Positions 18,599 to 31,648 of a stretch of 37,100 bases of DNA are shown here, piece after piece. Origin of the DNA: a virus. Taxonomy: Duplodnaviria > Heunggongvirae > Uroviricota > Caudoviricetes. How positions within the stretch are numbered: the stretch's first letter is position 1; each line of letters opens with the position of its first letter. The notes under the pieces were generated by a model that made no database searches, had not been told where the DNA came from, and saw only the letters and a program-made list of their open reading frames with translations. The stretch lies in IMG/VR virus record IMGVR_UViG_2718218139_000003; one strand, given 5' to 3'. Made by a program: the position numbers and the translations under genes.

Positions 18599-19399
18599 TT
18601 AACCGCGCTTCGCCTTCTGCGTCGCGGTGGTTTTTCGTGTTGCAGGCTTCCGCGTTGTCTTTTTACTTTTGCTGCTTTCGTCCTGCGCCTGCGGTGTGCT
18701 GGCATCTTCTGGTGCGGCTGCGGAATCGGCTTTTTTCAGGGCGCGGGAAAGGGTTGCAATCTCGCGTTTCACGCCTGCGTTCGGGTTCAGGTGCATCGCT
18801 TCGCGCAGCAGCTTCAGTGACAGGGCCATGCTGTCCGCATCACTCAGACCACGACGGGCAAAGGCGCACGCCTTGCATAATTTGGCGCGCACTTCGTCCG
18901 GCATGTCCTGGTCTGTGACAATCTCCCGGAGGGTGTCCAGTGGTTCGATAAAGGCGGACAAATCTGCGTCGGCATCCGTCCCGGCCTGTGTCAGTACCGG
19001 GTTGCAGATTTCTTCGGTCAGTACCGTGGCAGCAGTACGGCCAAAGTTATCCGGCATGATGAGGTTGTGACGGACCACATACGCACCAATACGCAGCGCC
19101 AGCGGAAGATCGCCGCAGTCAATCGCCCACACCATCAGCGTGGCAATCACTTCATCCTGCTGCCCGCCGTCAGCCTCCAGCGTTCCCTCAATCCAGCCGG
19201 AAAAGTCCGGCAACAACTCTTTTTTGATGGCGGCTTTCGCACTTCTGGCCTGTACGCCATTAAGCCGGGCCTGTGCCAGACGCAGACGATACAGCACCTC
19301 TTCATGCGCGGTACGCGCGGCGTGGTCAACGCCTTCATTCGCCCGGCCTGCGCGCTGTGCCATCACGTTCTGCCAGTGTTGCTGTGCAGGAGTAATCAT
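18599..19399 (-). CDS. M: Terminase small (endonuclease) subunit (P2 gpM-like)
   Basis: Synteny between N and L; basic C-terminus. Confidence 0.7.
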   Translation of the reverse strand: MITPAQQHWQNVMAQRAGRANEGVDHAARTAHEEVLYRLRLAQARLNGVQARSAKAAIKKELLPDFSGWIEGTLEADGGQQDEVIATLMVWAIDCGDLPLALRIGAYVVRHNLIMPDNFGRTAATVLTEEICNPVLTQAGTDADADLSAFIEPLDTLREIVTDQDMPDEVRAKLCKACAFARRGLSDADSMALSLKLLREAMHLNPNAGVKREIATLSRALKKADSAAAPEDASTPQAQDESSKSKKTTRKPATRKTTATQKAKRG

Positions 19400-21510: not shown

Positions 21511-23262
21511 ATGATTCAGGACGCTTTTGTGCGCCAGCGTGCGCGGCAACTTTACTGGCAGGGTTATCCGCCCGCAGAAATATCACGTCTGATGGGAATA
21601 AACCCGAACACGATTTATGCGTGGAAAAAACGCGACCAGTGGGATGAAACGCCCCCCGTGCAGCGTGTCACGCAGTCCATCGATGCGCGCCTCATCCAGC
21701 TTACTGAAAAACAGAATAAAACAGGCGGTGACTTTAAGGAAATAGACCTGCTGACCCGGCAGCTTAAAAAGCTGCATGATGGCCAGCCGGATGTGATGGC
21801 CGCAGGAAAGAAAGGCCGGGCGAAAAAACTTAAAAATCATTTCACGCCGGAACAGATTGCCGCACTGCGGGAAAAAATCATCAGCAGGCTGGAGTGGCAT
21901 CAGCGGGGCTGGTTTGACTCCCTGACACTTTGCAGGGAAGCCGGGATACGTAACAGGATGATCCTGAAATCCCGACAGATTGGGGCGACCTGGTATTTTG
22001 CACAGGAAGCTCTGCTGATGGCGCTGCGTGACGATGTGGCGCAACCTTACCAGCGTAACCAGATTTTTTTGTCTGCGTCGCGTCGTCAGGCGTTCCAGTT
22101 TAAAAGCATTATTCAGAAGGCCGCGGCTGAAGTTGATGTGGAGCTGAAAGGGGGCGATAAAATCATCCTCTCCAACGGCGCAGAGCTGCATTTTCTCGGC
22201 ACTTCTGCTGCGTCGGCACAGTCCTATACGGGCAATTTTTATTTTGATGAATTTTTCTGGGTCAGTCGCTTTGCTGAACTGCGCAAGGTGGCTGGCGCTA
22301 TGGCAACCCTCAGCGGACTGCGGCGCACCTACTTCTCCACACCATCCACCGAAACGCACGAGGCGTACGCCTACTGGAACGGCGACCGCTGGAACGAGAA
22401 AAAGGCCTCGCATAAACGCCAGCGTTTTTCTGTGGACTGGAAAACGCTGCATAACGGGCTTATCTGCCCTGACCGGACTTGGCGGCAAATTGTCACGCTG
22501 GAAGATGTGGTTAATCACGGCTGGAAACACACCGATATCGACGAAATTCGTGATGAAAACACCGAAGACGAGTTCCTCAATCTCTATATGTGTGAGTTTG
22601 TCCGCGAAGGGGAATCGGCATTTAACCTGAATATCCTGATTGGCTGCGGTGTTGACGGATACGACGACTGGAAAGACTGGAAACCTTTTGCTCCCCGCCC
22701 GATGGGGAATCGTCCGGTATGGATTGGGTATGACGCAAACGGCAGCAGTGGCAACGGCGACAGCGGTGCTGTGTCCGTGGTGGTTCCTCCGGCTGTTCCT
22801 GGTGGCCGTTTTCGAACGGTGGAGACGCGACGCGTTCAGGGGCTGGAGTTTGAAGAACAGGCCAGAGTCATTGAAGAGTTCACGTGTCGCTATAACGTGG
22901 AACACATCGGCATTGATGTGACGGGCGGGAACGGGGAGGCTGTTTATCAGATAGTGAAACGGTTTTTCCCTGCTGCTATTCCGTACACCTTCACGCTGTC
23001 ATCAAAACGGTCGCTGGTACTGAAAATGCTGCAAATAATGCGTGCCGGGCGGTGGGAATACGATCGCGCCGAACGCGAGCTGGTCGCGGCCTTTAACGCC
23101 GTGCGTAAGGTGAAAACACCGGGCGGCTTTATCACTTACGAAACGGACCGCGCGAGGGGGATCAGCCACGGCGACCTTGCGTGGGCAACCATGCTTGCTG
23201 TCATTAACGAACCGATTGGCGGCGAAGGAGAAAACGAGCGTTTCACGGTTATGGAGTTCTGA
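21511..23262 (+). CDS. P: Terminase large (ATPase) subunit (P2 gpP-like)
   Basis: 583 aa; divergent from the O gene; overlaps the portal start. Confidence 0.8.
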   Translation: MIQDAFVRQRARQLYWQGYPPAEISRLMGINPNTIYAWKKRDQWDETPPVQRVTQSIDARLIQLTEKQNKTGGDFKEIDLLTRQLKKLHDGQPDVMAAGKKGRAKKLKNHFTPEQIAALREKIISRLEWHQRGWFDSLTLCREAGIRNRMILKSRQIGATWYFAQEALLMALRDDVAQPYQRNQIFLSASRRQAFQFKSIIQKAAAEVDVELKGGDKIILSNGAELHFLGTSAASAQSYTGNFYFDEFFWVSRFAELRKVAGAMATLSGLRRTYFSTPSTETHEAYAYWNGDRWNEKKASHKRQRFSVDWKTLHNGLICPDRTWRQIVTLEDVVNHGWKHTDIDEIRDENTEDEFLNLYMCEFVREGESAFNLNILIGCGVDGYDDWKDWKPFAPRPMGNRPVWIGYDANGSSGNGDSGAVSVVVPPAVPGGRFRTVETRRVQGLEFEEQARVIEEFTCRYNVEHIGIDVTGGNGEAVYQIVKRFFPAAIPYTFTLSSKRSLVLKMLQIMRAGRWEYDRAERELVAAFNAVRKVKTPGGFITYETDRARGISHGDLAWATMLAVINEPIGGEGENERFTVMEF

Positions 23263-24308
23263 TGAGCAGAAAAAATAAAAAAGTGCGCATGAGTTCACGC
23301 ATTGATCTCGCTGATGCGCTCAGGAAAGAATCATCGCTCAGTGCATTCACATTTGATGGTCCTTATCGCCTGACCGGGCATGACCTGCTGGATAATATGT
23401 ACTGTGCTGATAACGGGCGGTGGTATGAAACCCCGGTGGACTGGTACGGTCTGGCAAGAGCTGCCCGGCAAACGTCCTGGCATCAGTCTGCGCTTTACTT
23501 TAAGCGCAATGTATTACTCGGTTGCTACATCCCGCACCCGCTGCTTTCCCGGCAGGATTTCTCGGCGCTGGCGCTGGACTGGTTTGTGTTCGGTAACGCA
23601 TTCCTTGAGCTTCGTAGCAATATGCTCGGCGAACCGCTTAAATTACGGCACGCCCTGGCGAAATACATGCGACGCGGAAGCGATCTTGAATCATGGTGGT
23701 ATGTGCAGGATGGCAAGGACGCGTTCCAGTTTCGCCCTGGCAAAGTGTGCCACCTGATGAATCCGGATATTAACCAGGAAATCTACGGCATGCCGGAATA
23801 TCTTGGCGCATTACTCTCGGCCAGCCTTTCTCATTCGGCGGACATGTTCAGAAAACTGTACTACGACAACGGATCCCACGCCGGGTGCATCATCTACATC
23901 GGTGCAGCGCAGGTAAACCGCGAAAGCATGGACTCCCTGAAAGAAACGTTACAAGGTGCGCGTGGTGGTGGTGCGTTTAAAAACGTGCTCATCCACGCGC
24001 CCAACGGGGGCAAAGAGGGGGTGCAAATTTTGCCGTTCCAGCAGATCACCGCAAAGGATGAGTTCATGAATGTTAAGGCGGCATCCCGTGATGATGTGCT
24101 GGCTGCGCACCGCGTTCCGCCGCAACTGATGGGGGCAATGCCGGGCGAAAAAAGTGCGTTTGGTGATGTGGAGAAGGCCGCGCGGGTTTATGCAATTAAC
24201 GAGCTGATGCCCGTTATGGAGGCCATGAAGCACATCAATGACTGGCTTGGCGAAGAGGTGATCCGTTTTAATTCTTATGCTCTTCTTGATGAAAAAACAG
24301 CCCCGTGA
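23262..24308 (+). CDS. Q: Portal protein (P2 gpQ-like)
   Basis: 348 aa; follows terminase P. Confidence 0.8.
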   Translation: MSRKNKKVRMSSRIDLADALRKESSLSAFTFDGPYRLTGHDLLDNMYCADNGRWYETPVDWYGLARAARQTSWHQSALYFKRNVLLGCYIPHPLLSRQDFSALALDWFVFGNAFLELRSNMLGEPLKLRHALAKYMRRGSDLESWWYVQDGKDAFQFRPGKVCHLMNPDINQEIYGMPEYLGALLSASLSHSADMFRKLYYDNGSHAGCIIYIGAAQVNRESMDSLKETLQGARGGGAFKNVLIHAPNGGKEGVQILPFQQITAKDEFMNVKAASRDDVLAAHRVPPQLMGAMPGEKSAFGDVEKAARVYAINELMPVMEAMKHINDWLGEEVIRFNSYALLDEKTAP

Positions 24309-24325
24309 TGGGGCTGTCCTTTTTA
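24297..24325. terminator. Bidirectional rho-independent terminator shared by Q and the convergent 174-aa gene
   Basis: acagcccc-gtgat-ggggctgt stem flanked by A6 upstream and T5 downstream; Q stop codon lies in the loop. Confidence 0.65.
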
Positions 24326-24847
24326 CCAGAGTTGAACCATTTTCTGGGTGCCGTCAGGCTTGAGATTATCAATTTCAGAGAGAACGTAATATTGAATGGC
24401 TTCACAAACGGTGGTGTATGGTGACTTACCTTCTTTAAGTGGCACGATATTATTATTAACGCGAACCTGTATTTCATCGTTATACATTGCGATCGAAAGA
24501 GGAGTATGCACGAAGGCGACTTCGCCAGGTGTGTCGTCAACCACTGTCTCAATGCTGAAAATCAGTTTTCGCTCATCATTGCCGCCCCTTGCTTTGGGGG
24601 TAGCGGCAGGAATCTGAGATAAAGGCATTCTACGAAACCCTTCAGTTGTTTCCAGTCCGCATGAAACGTAATGCTGGCGATTACCGTCGCTATCCGTCCA
24701 TGTCTGTGATGGCAGCTCCAGAGAGATTTCATAAGCATCAACAATTCCCTGGGCAATGCGTACAAGTGGGGTCAGGTCTTCATTGCGGCGAAAACTCTCC
24801 TTTACCTGATCTCGTTTTTCTCGTAACTGCTTGTAATTAATGACCAT
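24323..24847 (-). CDS. Hypothetical protein, 174 aa (start at MVINYKQ with RBS ggagg)
   Basis: Clean ORF with good RBS; no family recognised by eye. Confidence 0.55.
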   Translation of the reverse strand: MVINYKQLREKRDQVKESFRRNEDLTPLVRIAQGIVDAYEISLELPSQTWTDSDGNRQHYVSCGLETTEGFRRMPLSQIPAATPKARGGNDERKLIFSIETVVDDTPGEVAFVHTPLSIAMYNDEIQVRVNNNIVPLKEGKSPYTTVCEAIQYYVLSEIDNLKPDGTQKMVQLW

Positions 24848-25406
24848 AAAACAGCCTCCATTGATTTCTTTGCTCGTATTTTGCACTTATGAAGTGTGGT
24901 CGGCAAGGTGCCGCATCACTGACGCGCTTCGCTTGTCTGCTGCTTCGCCGGGGCATAAAAAATTTATGCCCCGGCTCTCCAGCTCCTGTATCAATCAGAT
25001 AATTTCACGACGCCTTCCAGTTTATCGCCACCATCGACGGTCAGACTCTTACGCAATCCCACCGCGTTGACTGTATGTTCTCGCTGCCTCAGTGCGATTT
25101 TGACGGCCTTACCTTTCACCCCATCAAATCAAAAGCCCTCACGCCTTTTTCATGCTCAGCGTGAGAAATATGGCCATTCTGTTGTGTCTCTGCGACATCG
25201 TTCAGGGAATGCTATTTACCCCCTGAAACGCGGGCTGTTCCCCCGTCACCTGCGCGCAGAAAAAACGCGTTTTTTTGTGCACGCACGGATCCTTGACGGA
25301 TCCAGCCGCCACGCGGGCCGGAAGGGCAAAAATTCGTTCAAAAAAATTGTGCAAATTTGTGCACTATTGTGCATTGAAATAAACGCTCTGGAGGAGGGCG
25401 TTTTAC

Positions 25407-25814
25407 TTATCTTTTATAGCCTTGCCCCTTCCTGGCCAGCGCCCTGATGGCCGGGCGTGCCAACACCATATTTTGGCAATGATGAATTGCCCGGCAAAAT
25501 TCATCTCTACCCATTGGATGCTCAACTGGCAACGTTAAATACAGGTTCCATGCGTCGCCTAAAAGTTGGGCTATCTTTTGTTCTTCAGATGTCAGCAAGC
25601 AAGCGGTATCCGTAAAATAATCATACTTTTCATGTATGTTATTTAACGGTTTTGTCTGTAGTGCAGCCTGAGCTATACGGTATGCCTGAAGCATACTGGC
25701 GTCGTTGATATCCATTCCGAACGGAATTTCTGATGATTGTGACTCTGCATCTTCAAGCCTGGCAATTTCTTTACGTAAGAAGTATTTCAACTCTTGTTTC
25801 TGTTTTCTGTTCAT
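25407..25814 (-). CDS. Hypothetical protein, 135 aa, translationally coupled (4-bp overlap) to the upstream zinc-ribbon gene
   Basis: ORF with ATGA-type overlap; no recognised motif. Confidence 0.5.
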
Positions 25815-26143
25815 GCGTTTTTTTCCTTTTTGTCTGTCACTTCTTTCCTGATAATTTCATTGCACAAATCCACGCACTCATTGCAGATGTAAACAGACGG
25901 TCCGGCAATCACCTTTGTGACTTCGTACTGGGATTTATTGCAGAAACTGCAATAAACCGTCTTCTCGCCTGAAGTCCATGTTTTGCTGGTTTCGCCAGAC
26001 ATCAGTTGTTTGAGGTCTTTTTCACGACGAAGAACTATCTGGCCACATTCAGCTATTTTTTGGATGTTGACATTTTCTTCTTTCGCCAGCGCTTCCATCC
26101 GCTCAATCAGTCGCTGCGCTTTTTCTCTGTCAATGTGTTGCAT
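25811..26143 (-). CDS. Small protein with a C-terminal ClpX-type C4 zinc-binding domain (ZBD-like) fused to an unrelated helical N-terminus
   Basis: Residues about 63-100 [40 protein letters not shown] nearly match the ClpX N-terminal zinc-binding domain as I recall it ([39 protein letters not shown]); strong RBS aaggggga. Confidence 0.7.
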
Positions 26144-26206: not shown

Positions 26207-26518
26207 TTATTCGGGAAATAACGCCCGGATATTTCCGGCCATCTGACTGGTTATCTGTGCGGCTGATACTGGCTGTGACGCGGGGCGTTCTGTCCTGGTT
26301 TGTGTCACTGATAACGCCTCATCATCAGCCCATGCAGCCAGTCGGTAAGCCTCTGCCGGATTCATTTTCAGTAGTGCCAGCCCGGCCAGAAAAGCCACGC
26401 GTTGGCCGCTTTTGCGGGCTTCTGGTGTAAGGCTGTCCAGCCAGGCGCATGCTTCGCCTTCGTTCTTGACGGCGGCGGGCTTCAGATAGAAACTTATCCG
26501 TCTGGTTGGTGTCGGCAT
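26207..26518 (-). CDS. ParR/StbB-like centromere-binding adaptor (103 aa)
   Basis: RISFYLKP...LDSLTPEARKSGQRVAFLAGLALL...IRALFPE parallels plasmid R1 ParR as I recall it; start 4 nt after the ParM-like stop with RBS aggag. Confidence 0.6.
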   Translation of the reverse strand: MPTPTRRISFYLKPAAVKNEGEACAWLDSLTPEARKSGQRVAFLAGLALLKMNPAEAYRLAAWADDEALSVTQTRTERPASQPVSAAQITSQMAGNIRALFPE

Positions 26519-26522
26519 TGGT

Positions 26523-27482
26523 TTACTCCTTGTCCATTGCGTACAGCCCATTAACCAGAGCAAACTGTGGCACCCCGTCCGCGATGAAAGTCGCATTAAC
26601 TCCGCAGGCTTCGCGGATAGCGGGTGCCACAATCTCCGCTCCGCCACCGACAACCATCACCCGCCCGTAACCCGAAAAACCCGCCAGCGCGCGGATCACG
26701 CGTTGTTTCAGTGTTTCTTCCTTTTCACGAATAACCGCCATCAGGCTGGCGTAATGCGCGTCATTGTGGATGTGCTGGCGCAGCCAGGCTTCATCATGGC
26801 GATGTTCGATAATGGTATTGGCGATGTGGTGACTGGTACGCATACCGTTAGTGGCCATCACCGACAGTACGGCATCGGCCATCAGGGAAACGCCTACGTG
26901 TGGATCGCAAAACACCTGGCTGATACCTGCCAGTTGTCCCTGAACCTTTGCCACATCCAGCGTGGTTCCGCCCAAATCCACAATCAGCAGGGATTCAAAC
27001 GGACTCATGTCAGCCAGTGCCTTAAAGCCAGCCGGAATGGATTCAGGCATAACCCGTACATTACGGATAGTGAATGCCTTACCGTTCTGGTACTCCACCG
27101 GGCGCATGACGTTCGCTTTTTTGCGGTTGATGTTGGCCATGTCCGGCTGTGCGTTTGTGTCGAAATACTCGCTCAGTGGCAGGGTGACAACCACATCCAC
27201 TTCCTGTGGTGTGATGCCTGATTTGACCAGCGCGTGATGAATGGCAATTACATTCACATCGCTGTACTGGTATTGCGTGTCGGTCGTCTGGACAAAGCGA
27301 TCGCTGATCGGATCAAAACCATAGCGCACGCCATCAAGCATGTAGTTCGCAGGCTGTGAGCCACCGAACGGCGCAGACCATTCCGACTTGAAGCTGTTCG
27401 GGCTGATGGCGTTGCGGCGTTCGCCGTTCTCAGTCCATGCCAGCTTGATGTTGGTGGAGCCGTCGTCGATACAAATTTTCAT
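26523..27482 (-). CDS. ParM/StbA-like actin-family segregation ATPase (319 aa)
   Basis: N-terminus MKICIDDGSTNIKLAW and downstream ISPNSFK, FDPIS, YSDVNVIAIHHAL...EVDVVVTLPL blocks parallel plasmid R1 ParM (MLVFIDDGSTNIKLQW...). Confidence 0.75.
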   Translation of the reverse strand: MKICIDDGSTNIKLAWTENGERRNAISPNSFKSEWSAPFGGSQPANYMLDGVRYGFDPISDRFVQTTDTQYQYSDVNVIAIHHALVKSGITPQEVDVVVTLPLSEYFDTNAQPDMANINRKKANVMRPVEYQNGKAFTIRNVRVMPESIPAGFKALADMSPFESLLIVDLGGTTLDVAKVQGQLAGISQVFCDPHVGVSLMADAVLSVMATNGMRTSHHIANTIIEHRHDEAWLRQHIHNDAHYASLMAVIREKEETLKQRVIRALAGFSGYGRVMVVGGGAEIVAPAIREACGVNATFIADGVPQFALVNGLYAMDKE

Positions 27483-27512: not shown

Positions 27513-27626
27513 GTTTACGGGATTCTGAAATCCCGTTTTTGCCTGTTTTGTGCGCGCTTCATATATCGCTGCGCGTTTTTTGCTCATTTACGGGATTCGT
27601 GAGTCCCGTTTCTGTCTGTTTTTTGT
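27513..27626. repeat. Two about 41-bp direct repeats (27513-27553 and 27586-27626), each with the inverted repeat ACGGGA-N8-TCCCGT; candidate parC-like centromere/operator
   Basis: Seen directly; located immediately upstream of the ParM-like gene. Confidence 0.5.
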
Positions 27627-28670: not shown

Positions 28671-29489
28671 ATGTGTCAGGTATTTGGTGTATCCAGGAGC
28701 GGTTATTACAACTGGGTACAGCATGAACCCTCAGACAGAAAACAAAGTGATGAGCGGCTAAAACTGGAGATTAAGGTGGCACATATCCGCACTCGCGAAA
28801 CATATGGAACCCGGCGGCTCCAGACGGAGCTGGCAGAGAATGGCATCATCGTTGGTCGTGACCGACTGGCACGTCTTCGTAAGGAGCTAAGGCTACGCTG
28901 TAAGCAGAAACGCAAGTTCAGAGCGACTACGAACTCGAACCACAATCTGCCAGTTGCGCCAAATCTGCTGAACCAGACGTTCGCTCCTACAGCACCAAAT
29001 CAGGTCTGGGTGGCGGACCTGACGTATGTTGCCACACAGGAGGGATGGTTGTACCTCGCTGGCATCAAAGATGTTTATACGTGCGAAATTGTCGGCTACG
29101 CCATGGGAGAGCGCATGACAAAAGAGCTGACAGGTAAAGCCCTGTTTATGGCGCTCAGGAGCCAGCGCCCACCTGCCGGGCTAATCCACCACTCTGATCG
29201 AGGTTCACAGTACTGCGCATACGATTACCGGGTCATACAGGAGCAGTTTGGTCTGAAAACATCAATGTCGCGTAAAGGTAACTGTTACGACAACGCTCCG
29301 ATGGAAAGCTTCTGGGGAACGCTGAAAAATGAGAGCCTGAGCCACTATCGTTTTAATAACCGGGATGAAGCCATCTCAGTAATACGGGAATACATTGAGA
29401 TTTTCTACAATCGTCAGCGTCGTCACTCTCGTCTGGGGAATATCTCCCCGGCAGCCTTCAGGGAAAAATATCATCAGATGGCTGCTTAA
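28671..29489 (+). CDS. IS600-like transposase OrfB
   Basis: Identical protein to 3530-4348; frame open from 28572, overlapping orfA in -1 frame. Confidence 0.8.
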   Translation: MCQVFGVSRSGYYNWVQHEPSDRKQSDERLKLEIKVAHIRTRETYGTRRLQTELAENGIIVGRDRLARLRKELRLRCKQKRKFRATTNSNHNLPVAPNLLNQTFAPTAPNQVWVADLTYVATQEGWLYLAGIKDVYTCEIVGYAMGERMTKELTGKALFMALRSQRPPAGLIHHSDRGSQYCAYDYRVIQEQFGLKTSMSRKGNCYDNAPMESFWGTLKNESLSHYRFNNRDEAISVIREYIEIFYNRQRRHSRLGNISPAAFREKYHQMAA

Positions 29490-29532
29490 AAAAAGAACAA
29501 ATGGTAGTGTCCGCTATTGCCAGTACACCTCA

Positions 29533-31648
29533 GTGCTGGCCGTTCTTCCGGCTGTTCTGTCCCGTTGTTGTCCGTTTCCTGTACACGAGGACAGTTATTG
29601 CCACGAGTCCAAGGGGCGGCAGGGCCGCCCTGAAGGTCAAAACCATTTTCGCGGGCGCTGTCTTCCACTTCCGGTTTACGTCTTACCAGCTTCCAGTTAT
29701 CCGGATGCGTGCACACACGGGAGGATTCCCCGATGAATGGCGACCAGATCCCGTAAATCTGTACACTCTGTTCGCCGTAATCGTTCAGCTCATCTGCGAG
29801 GTCGTAGGCGGTGCGAATCAGGTAGTCCTTGCGCGGAACAAGTACGCCACCCTGTTTTTCAATGTAGGTGGCAAAACATCCGGCATCAGCGGCAGCGAGT
29901 ACCGCATCCATTGCGTCATCCTTCAGCCGTTGCGGGCCTTCCGGGTTGCGTGCCATCTGGCTGGCAAGGCGGCGGAGTTCACGCCACACCTGACGGGAGG
30001 GGATGCCAAAGAACTGGAACTGGCGGACCCGGTGAAGGCGCGCCCAGCCGATGGCGCGCTCCACACTCTCGGCCATTGATTTACCTGTTTCGTGTTCAAC
30101 GCGTGGCTTGCCCGTTTTCGGGTCGATGCCATCCACGGCACGGCTGTCCAGGTTTTTCCCTATGTAGGTGGCGATGTAGCTGGTCGGTGTGCCTTTTGAG
30201 CCGTCGACGTACTCCGCCTTAAAGCGTGGGGTAATATCATCACCCAGCTCGTGACGATCTTCCTGAATGGCAATATCGCGGGTGTGGGACACAATGGTGT
30301 CGATTTCTTCCGGATGTGCAAAGACCATCATATGCCAGTGCACGGTGCCGTCATGGTGAGGCTCCACCGTGCGGATGCCATACCAGCGCAGGCCGTCGCG
30401 GTTCAGTTTCTTGCGGACCGCCGCAAAAAACGTGTTAACCAGGTAATCACTGGAGTCGCGCATGGTGGCCCCGTTCCATTTGGGATTCGGATGACCGTTC
30501 TCTGTTGTGGCGTGGTATTTTGACGGGCAGGTGACAGTCAGAAACACCGCTCTGTCGCCACGGGCTTCGGCCAGAAGTTCCAGCCCCTTCATGGTGGCCA
30601 TCATTTCTGCCTTACGGTGAACCGGGTTACTTACTCCCGCGTAATACACCGTTTCGAGATCAATCGTGAACCCATCTTCATTTTCCAGCATGAAACTTTT
30701 CAGGAAATCGCGTGTTTTCTCGCGCTGTGCGCGAAACTCGCTTAACGCGTCCTGGCTCAGATAGGGTGATGTTTTTCTGGAAACCAGACAGGCGGCGCGG
30801 AGTTGTTCTTCTCTCCACTCGCAACGTAACAGCCACAGTTTGCGTTTCCACCATTCCGCACAGGTCAGGCGAAGGATTGCGCCCGGCAGCAGCTCCGTGT
30901 CCGGTTCGTTCCTCCGGTCTTTGTCTGTTGTCAGTGCGTCATAATGCGGAGGCATGGCGTGCAGGTGTAACGCCATGCGGGCCAGCATTTGATACGCCTT
31001 CAGCGTTACATCCATGGTCAGCTCGCCATCAGTCGCGCCAAAGCCATCGCAGAGTTTTTCGAAGGTGCTGCTGAACATCGCCGCCGTCATGGTGGCCAGC
31101 GTCTGTATCTGGTGCTTGTTGAGCTGCGGCAGGTAAAGCAAATCGTCCAGGCGTTCGCGTCCGGCAAGGGAGCGATAACCCGGTGTCAGCCAGCGGTGGT
31201 CGGTGCGGTCCAGACGTTCGAATATTTTGCGCAGGGTTCCGCGCGCGTAGCGTTCAGCCTGCCAGCTCTTTTTGCCTTTCCGGCGATCGGCTTCCTGTTT
31301 TTTGCGCAGGAAGGAGAGGTGGCGAATAAGCGGATCGCGCAGATAGGACGGCAGCAGGCGCAGCGAGGCCATGGCTTCATCCACCGCACCGCGTGCCTGT
31401 TTTCTGGCGTCTCCTGCCAGTGTGATGGTTTTGTCCTGTTTTTCCTGTGCGTCCAGGCTTTTATTAATCAGGTTGCCCAGCGGCGTGGCGGAGAATGCCG
31501 CATCAGCCATTTCCTGGCGGCGCTCGTTCTCTGCCCGGTAGGCATCCAGCCAGGAGGAAAGCGCGGATTCAGGAGCGGGGATCCCCGTTCCTTCACGCCC
31601 CACTGCGTGGCGCGGTTGTTGCCAGTCCCTGATGTACTCTGCCGTCAT
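29533..31648 (-). pseudogene. A: Rolling-circle replication initiation protein (P2 gpA-like), N-terminal 705 codons; interrupted near the 3' end by IS600
   Basis: HUH-type motif HDGTVHWHMMVF; size about 766 aa when rejoined with 28084-28268. Confidence 0.75.

Follow-up and report, generated by a model that had tools for sequence, protein, structure and literature searches.

A probable cos site of diverged sequence beside the portal gene of a P88-like prophage

The DNA analysed here (the window, 37,100 nt in length) contains a non-coding stretch at 24848-25406 that very probably holds the cos site of a P88-type prophage of the P2 family, with a core of about 160 bp (25214-25373) as its functional element. 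An earlier note on this DNA had put the stretch forward as a candidate cos or packaging locus, and that reading is supported by the position of the core, by its conservation across genera, by a copy of it in a satellite-like element, and by its collinearity with the cos sites of P2, P4, 186 and phiCTX. If the region is indeed cos, we consider a cut at 25232-25250 the likelier outcome; both this position and the length of the overhangs are read from homology of layout. The kind of element, a P2-family cos beside a hotspot of variable genes, is well known, and only the sequence of the P88 type appears to be undescribed: in the searchable literature, including the papers on P88, on Citrobacter phiSM, on Serratia and on the P4/P2 hotspots, we found no P88-type cos described.

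A conserved core in the non-coding stretch

By its sequence, the window is a P88-like prophage of the genus Xuanwuvirus in the Peduoviridae (P2-like phages). It carries a P2-type head and packaging module whose portal gene adjoins the cos side, and its order runs from the large terminase gene (TerL) through the portal gene to the core, and then on to the accessory genes and the replication gene (Table 1). The placement of the candidate site beside the portal and terminase genes, as originally suggested, is thus borne out, with the core lying just beyond these genes in a P88-like prophage. The large terminase is the presumed cos-cutting enzyme, and the small terminase is a candidate reader of the TTGTGCA heptamers described below.

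Table 1. Coordinates of the features in and around the non-coding stretch of the window
Feature	Position	Strand	Remarks
Small terminase, gpM-like	18599..19399	-	PF05944; 36% identity to P2 gpM
Large terminase, gpP-like, with N-terminal HTH domain	21511..23262	+	Terminase_6N/6C and gpP-like N-terminal domain; 44% identity to P2 gpP
Capsid scaffold and major capsid	near the non-coding stretch	-	part of the gene order around the non-coding stretch
Portal protein, gpQ-like	23262..24308	+	neighbours cos in P2-family genomes
Accessory gene, 174 aa, phrog_5091, function unknown	24323..24847	-	sits between portal and cos
Non-coding stretch	24848..25406		left edge: ATG of minus-strand gene at 24847; right edge: stop of minus-strand gene at 25407
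Hairpin, perfect 13-bp stem, 3-nt loop, no T tract	24947..24975		dG about -29 to -32 kcal/mol, z about -7.5
Fast-evolving non-coding spacer	24976..25213		about half of sites variable, no codon phase, 1-nt indels; unalignable with phiT5282H
Conserved putative cos core, about 160 bp	25214..25373		only cross-genus conserved part of the stretch; common to the satellite
Predicted cohesive-end block (cosN homologue)	25232..25250	-	reads GGTGACGGGGGAACAGCCC; predicted from layout
Proximal TTGTGCA heptamer, after T-run (25269-25274)	25275..25281	+	matches TGCA-A-run at -29 in P2/P4/186
Spacer, sequence variable, length fixed	25282..25346		holds ACGGATCC duplication and two GATC sites
Three distal TTGTGCA heptamers in 10-bp phase	25347..25373	+	candidate terminase recognition repeats
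Terminator-like hairpin at the 3' end of convergent gene 25407-25814(-)	25381..25403		part of the variable accessory module, not cos
Accessory gene, 135 aa	25407..25814	-	C-terminus matches phrog_13916 (labelled DNA ligase)
110-aa protein with ClpX-type C4 zinc finger	25811..26143	-	
StbB	26207..26518	-	
ParM	26523..27482	-	
Replication gene, P2 gpA-type replication endonuclease	29486..31648	-	

The earlier finding that the stretch has no credible open reading frame held on comparison with 89 unique relatives, among which 121 sites vary within 24976-25215: these are spread over the codon phases as 40/37/44, indels of 1 nt occur, and the small ORFs that depositors have annotated here differ from one record to another. 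The motifs listed in the earlier note are also present, namely a perfect 13-bp inverted repeat (GCCGGGGCATAAA/TTTATGCCCCGGC, at 24947-24959/24963-24975), an A6CGCGT7 palindrome (AAAAAACG/CGTTTTTT, at 25260-25275), a GGATCC duplication (ACGGATCC twice, at 25285-25292 and 25296-25303) and four copies of TTGTGCA, although the latter span 99 bp and not the 60 bp or so that had been given. All four heptamers are on the plus strand, starting at 25275, 25347, 25357 and 25367, the last three being phased at exactly 10 bp and the remaining copy lying 72 bp upstream. There is no overall enrichment of TTGTGCA in the window (7 found versus 9.4 expected), and the chance of finding four same-strand copies within 99 nt, calculated from the window-wide rates of the heptamer, is about 1e-9 per position, or about 1e-4 after a scan of the whole window. 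The pattern TGCA-N6-TGCA-N6-TGCA-N66-70-TGCA occurs a single time in the window. A perfect palindrome of 16 bp is expected by chance about 0.6 times per window. As parts of a cos site, only the TTGTGCA repeats survive from this list: the 13-bp hairpin lies outside the core, and the palindrome and the GGATCC duplication, though inside it, are confined to the E. coli-type lineage.

Homology among close relatives extends further to the left than the core does, with 16 P88-like phage records being 93-98% identical from about 24914 to 25373. For most P88-like phages it stops at 25373, directly after the third distal heptamer, and the sequence to the right of this point differs between relatives. 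Enterobacter phage phiT5282H, which belongs to another genus, can be aligned only over the core (about 25232-25376). When 114 oriented copies from viral contigs were reduced to 20 representative variants at 92% identity, conservation among the 20 was likewise limited to about 25214-25373, with unconserved flanks.

Our first search for further copies forced two short blocks to match, and it was rerun with only 20 nt of the distal repeats as an anchor. With this anchor alone, a TGCA was found 71-73 nt upstream in 74 of 82 unique metagenome copies (at exactly 72 nt in 72 of them), and the C-rich/GCGC block also stood at a fixed offset in this set. The middle of the core, about 65 bp, drifts freely while the overall length stays constant at 139 ± 1 nt; such fixed spacing combined with free sequence looks like that of a protein-DNA assembly site. 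On the other side of the proximal heptamer, most P88-type copies, whatever the genus, have the same 19-mer at 25232-25250 amid variable surroundings, and variants of it by 1-3 nt are seen in the satellite and at a few loci. Of 5426 complete E. coli genomes, 1149 (about 21%) carry the core, and the same layout was found in more than 20 species of Enterobacterales.

Some further features of these copies can be recorded. The spacer contains two GATC (Dam) sites, at 25288 and 25299, the first of which is kept in many, though not all, variants (as CGGATCC, CCGATCC or CAGATCC). In the GGCGAGGCGGGGG subtype the 72-bp spacer has a conserved palindrome, GCCAGYRCTGGC, at its centre, which appears in the satellite as CCAGTACTGG and is absent from the window's lineage. 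P88-type cores were also seen in assemblies labelled Vagococcus sp. and Bacillota MAG, the Vagococcus core being near-identical to the E. coli type, and these Gram-positive-labelled assemblies probably contain enterobacterial contaminant contigs.

Layout in common with mapped cos sites, and the predicted cut

P2 and P4 have nothing but their (core) cos in common (PMC9122126); this cos is described as a 55-bp core with 19-nt 5' cohesive ends (Ziermann and Calendar 1990, as cited in PMC9122126 and PMC5694545). The cos sites of P2, P4 and 186 are like the core of the window in their position next to the portal gene and in going with a homologous terminase. A comparison with the cos regions of P2, P4 and 186, in line with the check proposed in the earlier note, revealed a collinear layout in largely different sequence. 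For this comparison the record ends of P2, P4 and 186, in which the cohesive ends are annotated, were joined, and positions were counted relative to the first cohesive-end base. TGCA is found at -123/-124, -111, -101 and -29 in all three alike, despite unrelated spacer sequences. On the minus strand of the window, TGCA stands at -123, -113, -103 and -31 from GGTGACGG, the start of GGTGACGGGGGAACAGCCC (25232-25250), and the distance from the proximal to the nearest distal TGCA is 72 bp in the window, P2, P4 and 186.

The layout that the window has in common with P2, P4 and 186 therefore consists of three TGCA at about -123/-112/-102, a TGCA with an A-run at about -30, the 72-bp gap and a G-rich 19-mer. 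At the same time, the repeat unit is TTGTGCA in the window and TGCAT-like in the other three, the proximal TGCA is shifted by 2 nt (-31 versus -29), and GCGCGC precedes the G-rich block in the window whereas it follows the block in P2, P4 and 186. The layout used as a criterion here, TGCA repeats at fixed distances from a G-rich block, was derived in this analysis from P2, P4, 186 and phiCTX and has no published definition; the window has it. In the literature searched, we found no description of the TGCA layout of the P2, P4 and 186 cos sites.

At the level of sequence the likeness is much less apparent. The 19-nt P2 cohesive end, GGCGAGGCGGGGAAAGCAC, has no match within 3 mismatches in the window, and the 13/19 identity between it and 25232-25250 carries no significance by itself, as 13-14/19 is also reached at several unrelated places in the window. 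The conserved 55-bp core sequence of P2 is not there, and we therefore file the site as a diverged type and not under the canonical sequence. This explains why no P2-type cos had been found by eye in the earlier note: with a cohesive-end homologue matching at only 13/19, the site is recognisable by its spacing and through a related subtype.

This second enterobacterial subtype, seen in Klebsiella, Yokenella, Brenneria, Pectobacterium and Xenorhabdus, has TGCACAA repeats as in the window, at -121/-111/-101/-29. In the place of the cohesive block it carries GGCGAGGCGGGGGAGCAAG, the first 12 nt of which are those of the P2 cohesive end, and around the cut site it is 86% identical to the annotated cos of phiCTX. 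The phiCTX record annotates a 21-nt cohesive end, AGGCGTGGCGGGGGGACGACT, and repeats R4-R6 around cos, and has GTGCAGAAAAAG at -28. A G-rich cohesive end with flanking repeats is what phiCTX and the window have in common; the distal repeats of phiCTX are of a GCAG type with a spacing unlike that of the window, and the window's block GGTGACGGGGGAACAGCCC is further diverged than the second subtype. The chain leading from phiCTX and P2 through the second subtype to the P88 type predicts cuts at the edges of 25232-25250 (± 2 nt).

A different cut can be envisaged within the same cos region, in the variable spacer at about 25328/25329 (between GGAAGGGCA and AAAATTCG), 19 nt from the triple repeat, with 25232-25250 serving as a binding element. 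The linear record of P88_4B11 (LR595891/NC_049391) has both its start and its end exactly here, in P2-like orientation, and the nearby CGCGTGGCGG resembles the cohesive ends of 186 and phiCTX. We nevertheless regard this cut as unlikely. The depositors of P88_4B11 set nt 1 relative to reference genomes after trimming contig-end repeats (PMC6969025), which means that the start of the record is not a measured end, and we rejected it as a physical one; other P2-like records from the same depositors start at or near the P2 reference start. Moreover, the stretch around 25328/25329 is the least conserved part of the core, unlike the cohesive ends of the P2 family, and it is 25232-25250 that is indicated by the layout as well as by the second subtype. 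Searches with diverged cores found no further phage records ending inside the core, and contig ends near the core, in metagenomes as in viromes, do not pile up at any single position but are scattered.

On the right-hand side of the predicted cohesive block, two metagenome contigs are near-identical to the window, and on the left they are unrelated to it, with the change falling at the equivalent of 25225-25255. Such mosaic junctions fit with cohesive ends seeding recombination, and two cases are too few to serve as evidence.

A satellite-like element and other readings of the repeats

The core accompanies P2-type terminase and portal genes, and it also occurs in a satellite-like element without them. 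This integrative element of about 12.5 kb lies between hpt and gcd in E. coli (NZ_CM132655.1, at about 2727247-2739760). Its copy of the core is 78.7% identical to that of the window, and the similarity coincides exactly with the core, the flanks being unrelated. The element encodes a toxin-antitoxin pair, a homologue of the P2-family major capsid protein, an Ogr/Delta zinc-finger protein, two integrases, a Toprim primase and an Icd-like protein, and we found no terminase, portal or tail genes in it. The capsid homologue (423 aa) is 35% identical to the capsid protein of the window and has an N-terminal extension of about 130 aa. Three more copies of the element were found in viral contigs, and no fewer than 56 complete E. 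coli genomes contain its cos-bearing segment.

In the element the core sits between a Delta-like gene and an integrase, and the cos of P4 likewise sits between the late genes (sid-delta-psu) and int. By sequence, on the other hand, a relationship to P4 was rejected, with only weak similarity of the integrase (22%) and of orf88 (32%). In place of the sid and psu of P4, the element, which may represent an apparently undescribed satellite family of the P88 type, encodes a P2-family capsid homologue. Its gene content suggests that the element depends on a helper; if so, that it shares only 160 bp with a phage is what one classically expects of a packaging signal, just as cos is common to P2 and its dependent element P4.

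It is very improbable that the region is a transcriptional regulatory region, a late promoter or a small-RNA locus and not a packaging site. An intergenic position, A/T tracts, hairpins and a minus-strand gene starting at 24847 could all be expected of such a locus, and the earlier note had left room for it, yet scans for RNA families, promoters, terminators and Ogr dyads lent it no support. A scan of 24200-25900 with the covariance models of Rfam 15 gave no match at E<=1, sigma-70-like sites were absent from the core and, over the whole region, not clearly above shuffled controls, and the only Ogr-type TGT-N12-ACA dyad, at 25180, falls in the unconserved spacer outside the core. Conservation, moreover, tracks the packaging genes and the satellite and not the flanking genes, which vary between relatives.

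The ParM and StbB genes lie 0.8-2 kb from the TTGTGCA repeats, and short phased direct repeats are typical of centromeres, so the repeats could be thought of as a parC-like centromere of this plasmid-partition system. We rejected this identity, which we hold to be extremely improbable. The iterons of a type II centromere adjoin parM-parR, usually on the upstream side, and are inherited along with these genes. ParM is found within 4.5 kb in only 56 of 123 repeat-carrying loci, while phiT5282H, the ES1 prophage and the satellite have the repeats without ParM. In addition, a break in homology and two unrelated genes separate the repeats from the par genes, and a better parC candidate is found directly upstream of parM (27514-27625). 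The latter consists of two 39-nt repeats, at 27514-27552 and 27587-27625, which are 73 bp apart and each bear a palindrome, ACGGGATT...AATCCCGT; it is plausible that this pair is the parC of the prophage's ParM/StbB system.

Just as improbable is that the repeats are iterons of a replication origin, as their phasing and the adjoining A/T-rich tracts might suggest, since the phage and the satellite have unrelated replication proteins (a P2 gpA-type endonuclease and a Toprim primase) and yet a common core, since the P2 origin lies within gene A, and since the ori and crr repeats of P4 differ in sequence and location.

Surroundings of the core, proposed mechanism and implications

The hairpin to the left of the core varies less than the neighbouring spacer, with 3 variable sites in 30 nt where the spacer has 10-19 in the same length. 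In P88 and P88_4B11 the portal stop codon is followed by this hairpin after about 28-33 nt, the same post-portal position that the tQ terminator occupies in P2; phiT5282H lacks the hairpin. Its stem is very stable, but the T tract of an intrinsic terminator is missing on both strands, and the terminator label is tentative because of this. It is probably a terminator-type or RNA-end hairpin of the terminase-portal operon, outside cos.

In the window, a module at 24297-24913 consisting of the 174-aa gene and a bidirectional terminator (24297-24317) is inserted between the portal stop and this hairpin. The module is present in vB_EcoM-569R5 and its relatives and absent from P88 and P88_4B11. The 174-aa protein has no Pfam match, and neither it nor the proteins encoded at 25407-25814 and 25811-26143 matched the PADLOC defence models. 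The interval between cos and Q is a known insertion hotspot (PMC5694545), and the cos-adjacent interval between gpA and gpQ has been described as a hotspot of variable genes (PMC9122126). The accessory genes of the window from 25374 onward, together with the extra gene between portal and cos, match the latter hotspot; the accessory proteins that were tested differ in having no PADLOC defence match, and ParM/StbB and the protein with the ClpX-type zinc finger lie nearby.

The cos of lambda comprises cosN and cosB, with the sites R3-I1-R2-R1 for the small terminase and IHF, and has a 12-nt overhang. Its short same-sequence repeats are similarly one-sided, with one near copy and a distant group at a spacing that implies DNA bending. 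The sequence and the small terminase subunit are unrelated to those of the window, where binding of the heptamers by the small subunit is only a candidate function. The 10-bp phasing and the fixed 72-bp gap suggest a bent, wrapped or looped complex that would be functionally like lambda cosB.

We propose that the terminase of the prophage would recognise the four same-strand TTGTGCA heptamers, either via its gpM-like small subunit or via the N-terminal helix-turn-helix of its gpP-like large subunit. The large subunit would then nick both strands in a staggered manner at the edges of the predicted block (± 2 nt), leaving 5' overhangs of about 19-21 nt. The genome would be packaged through the portal, and after injection the cohesive ends would re-anneal to form a circle. 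Elements that copy the core would be packaged by the same enzyme. More tentatively, three TGCA, 72 bp, a TGCA with an A-run, about 30 bp and a G-rich cut may be a general recognition layout of the P2 family, in which the P88 type could form a specificity group of its own with its own satellite family; we consider this possible, with the balance somewhat against it.

None of these results overturns current understanding. They locate the predicted packaging signal of a prophage type carried by roughly one in five complete E. coli genomes, and they yield predicted virion ends and a minimal fragment of about 160 bp for cos-plasmid or phagemid work. The third distal heptamer marks the exact boundary of the cos-adjacent hotspot at which accessory or defence genes are swapped. 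The repeat spacing common to P2, P4 and 186 suggests how the terminases of the P2 family read cos, and the presence of the core in a satellite that encodes a capsid homologue speaks for a helper-satellite pairing other than that of P2 and P4.
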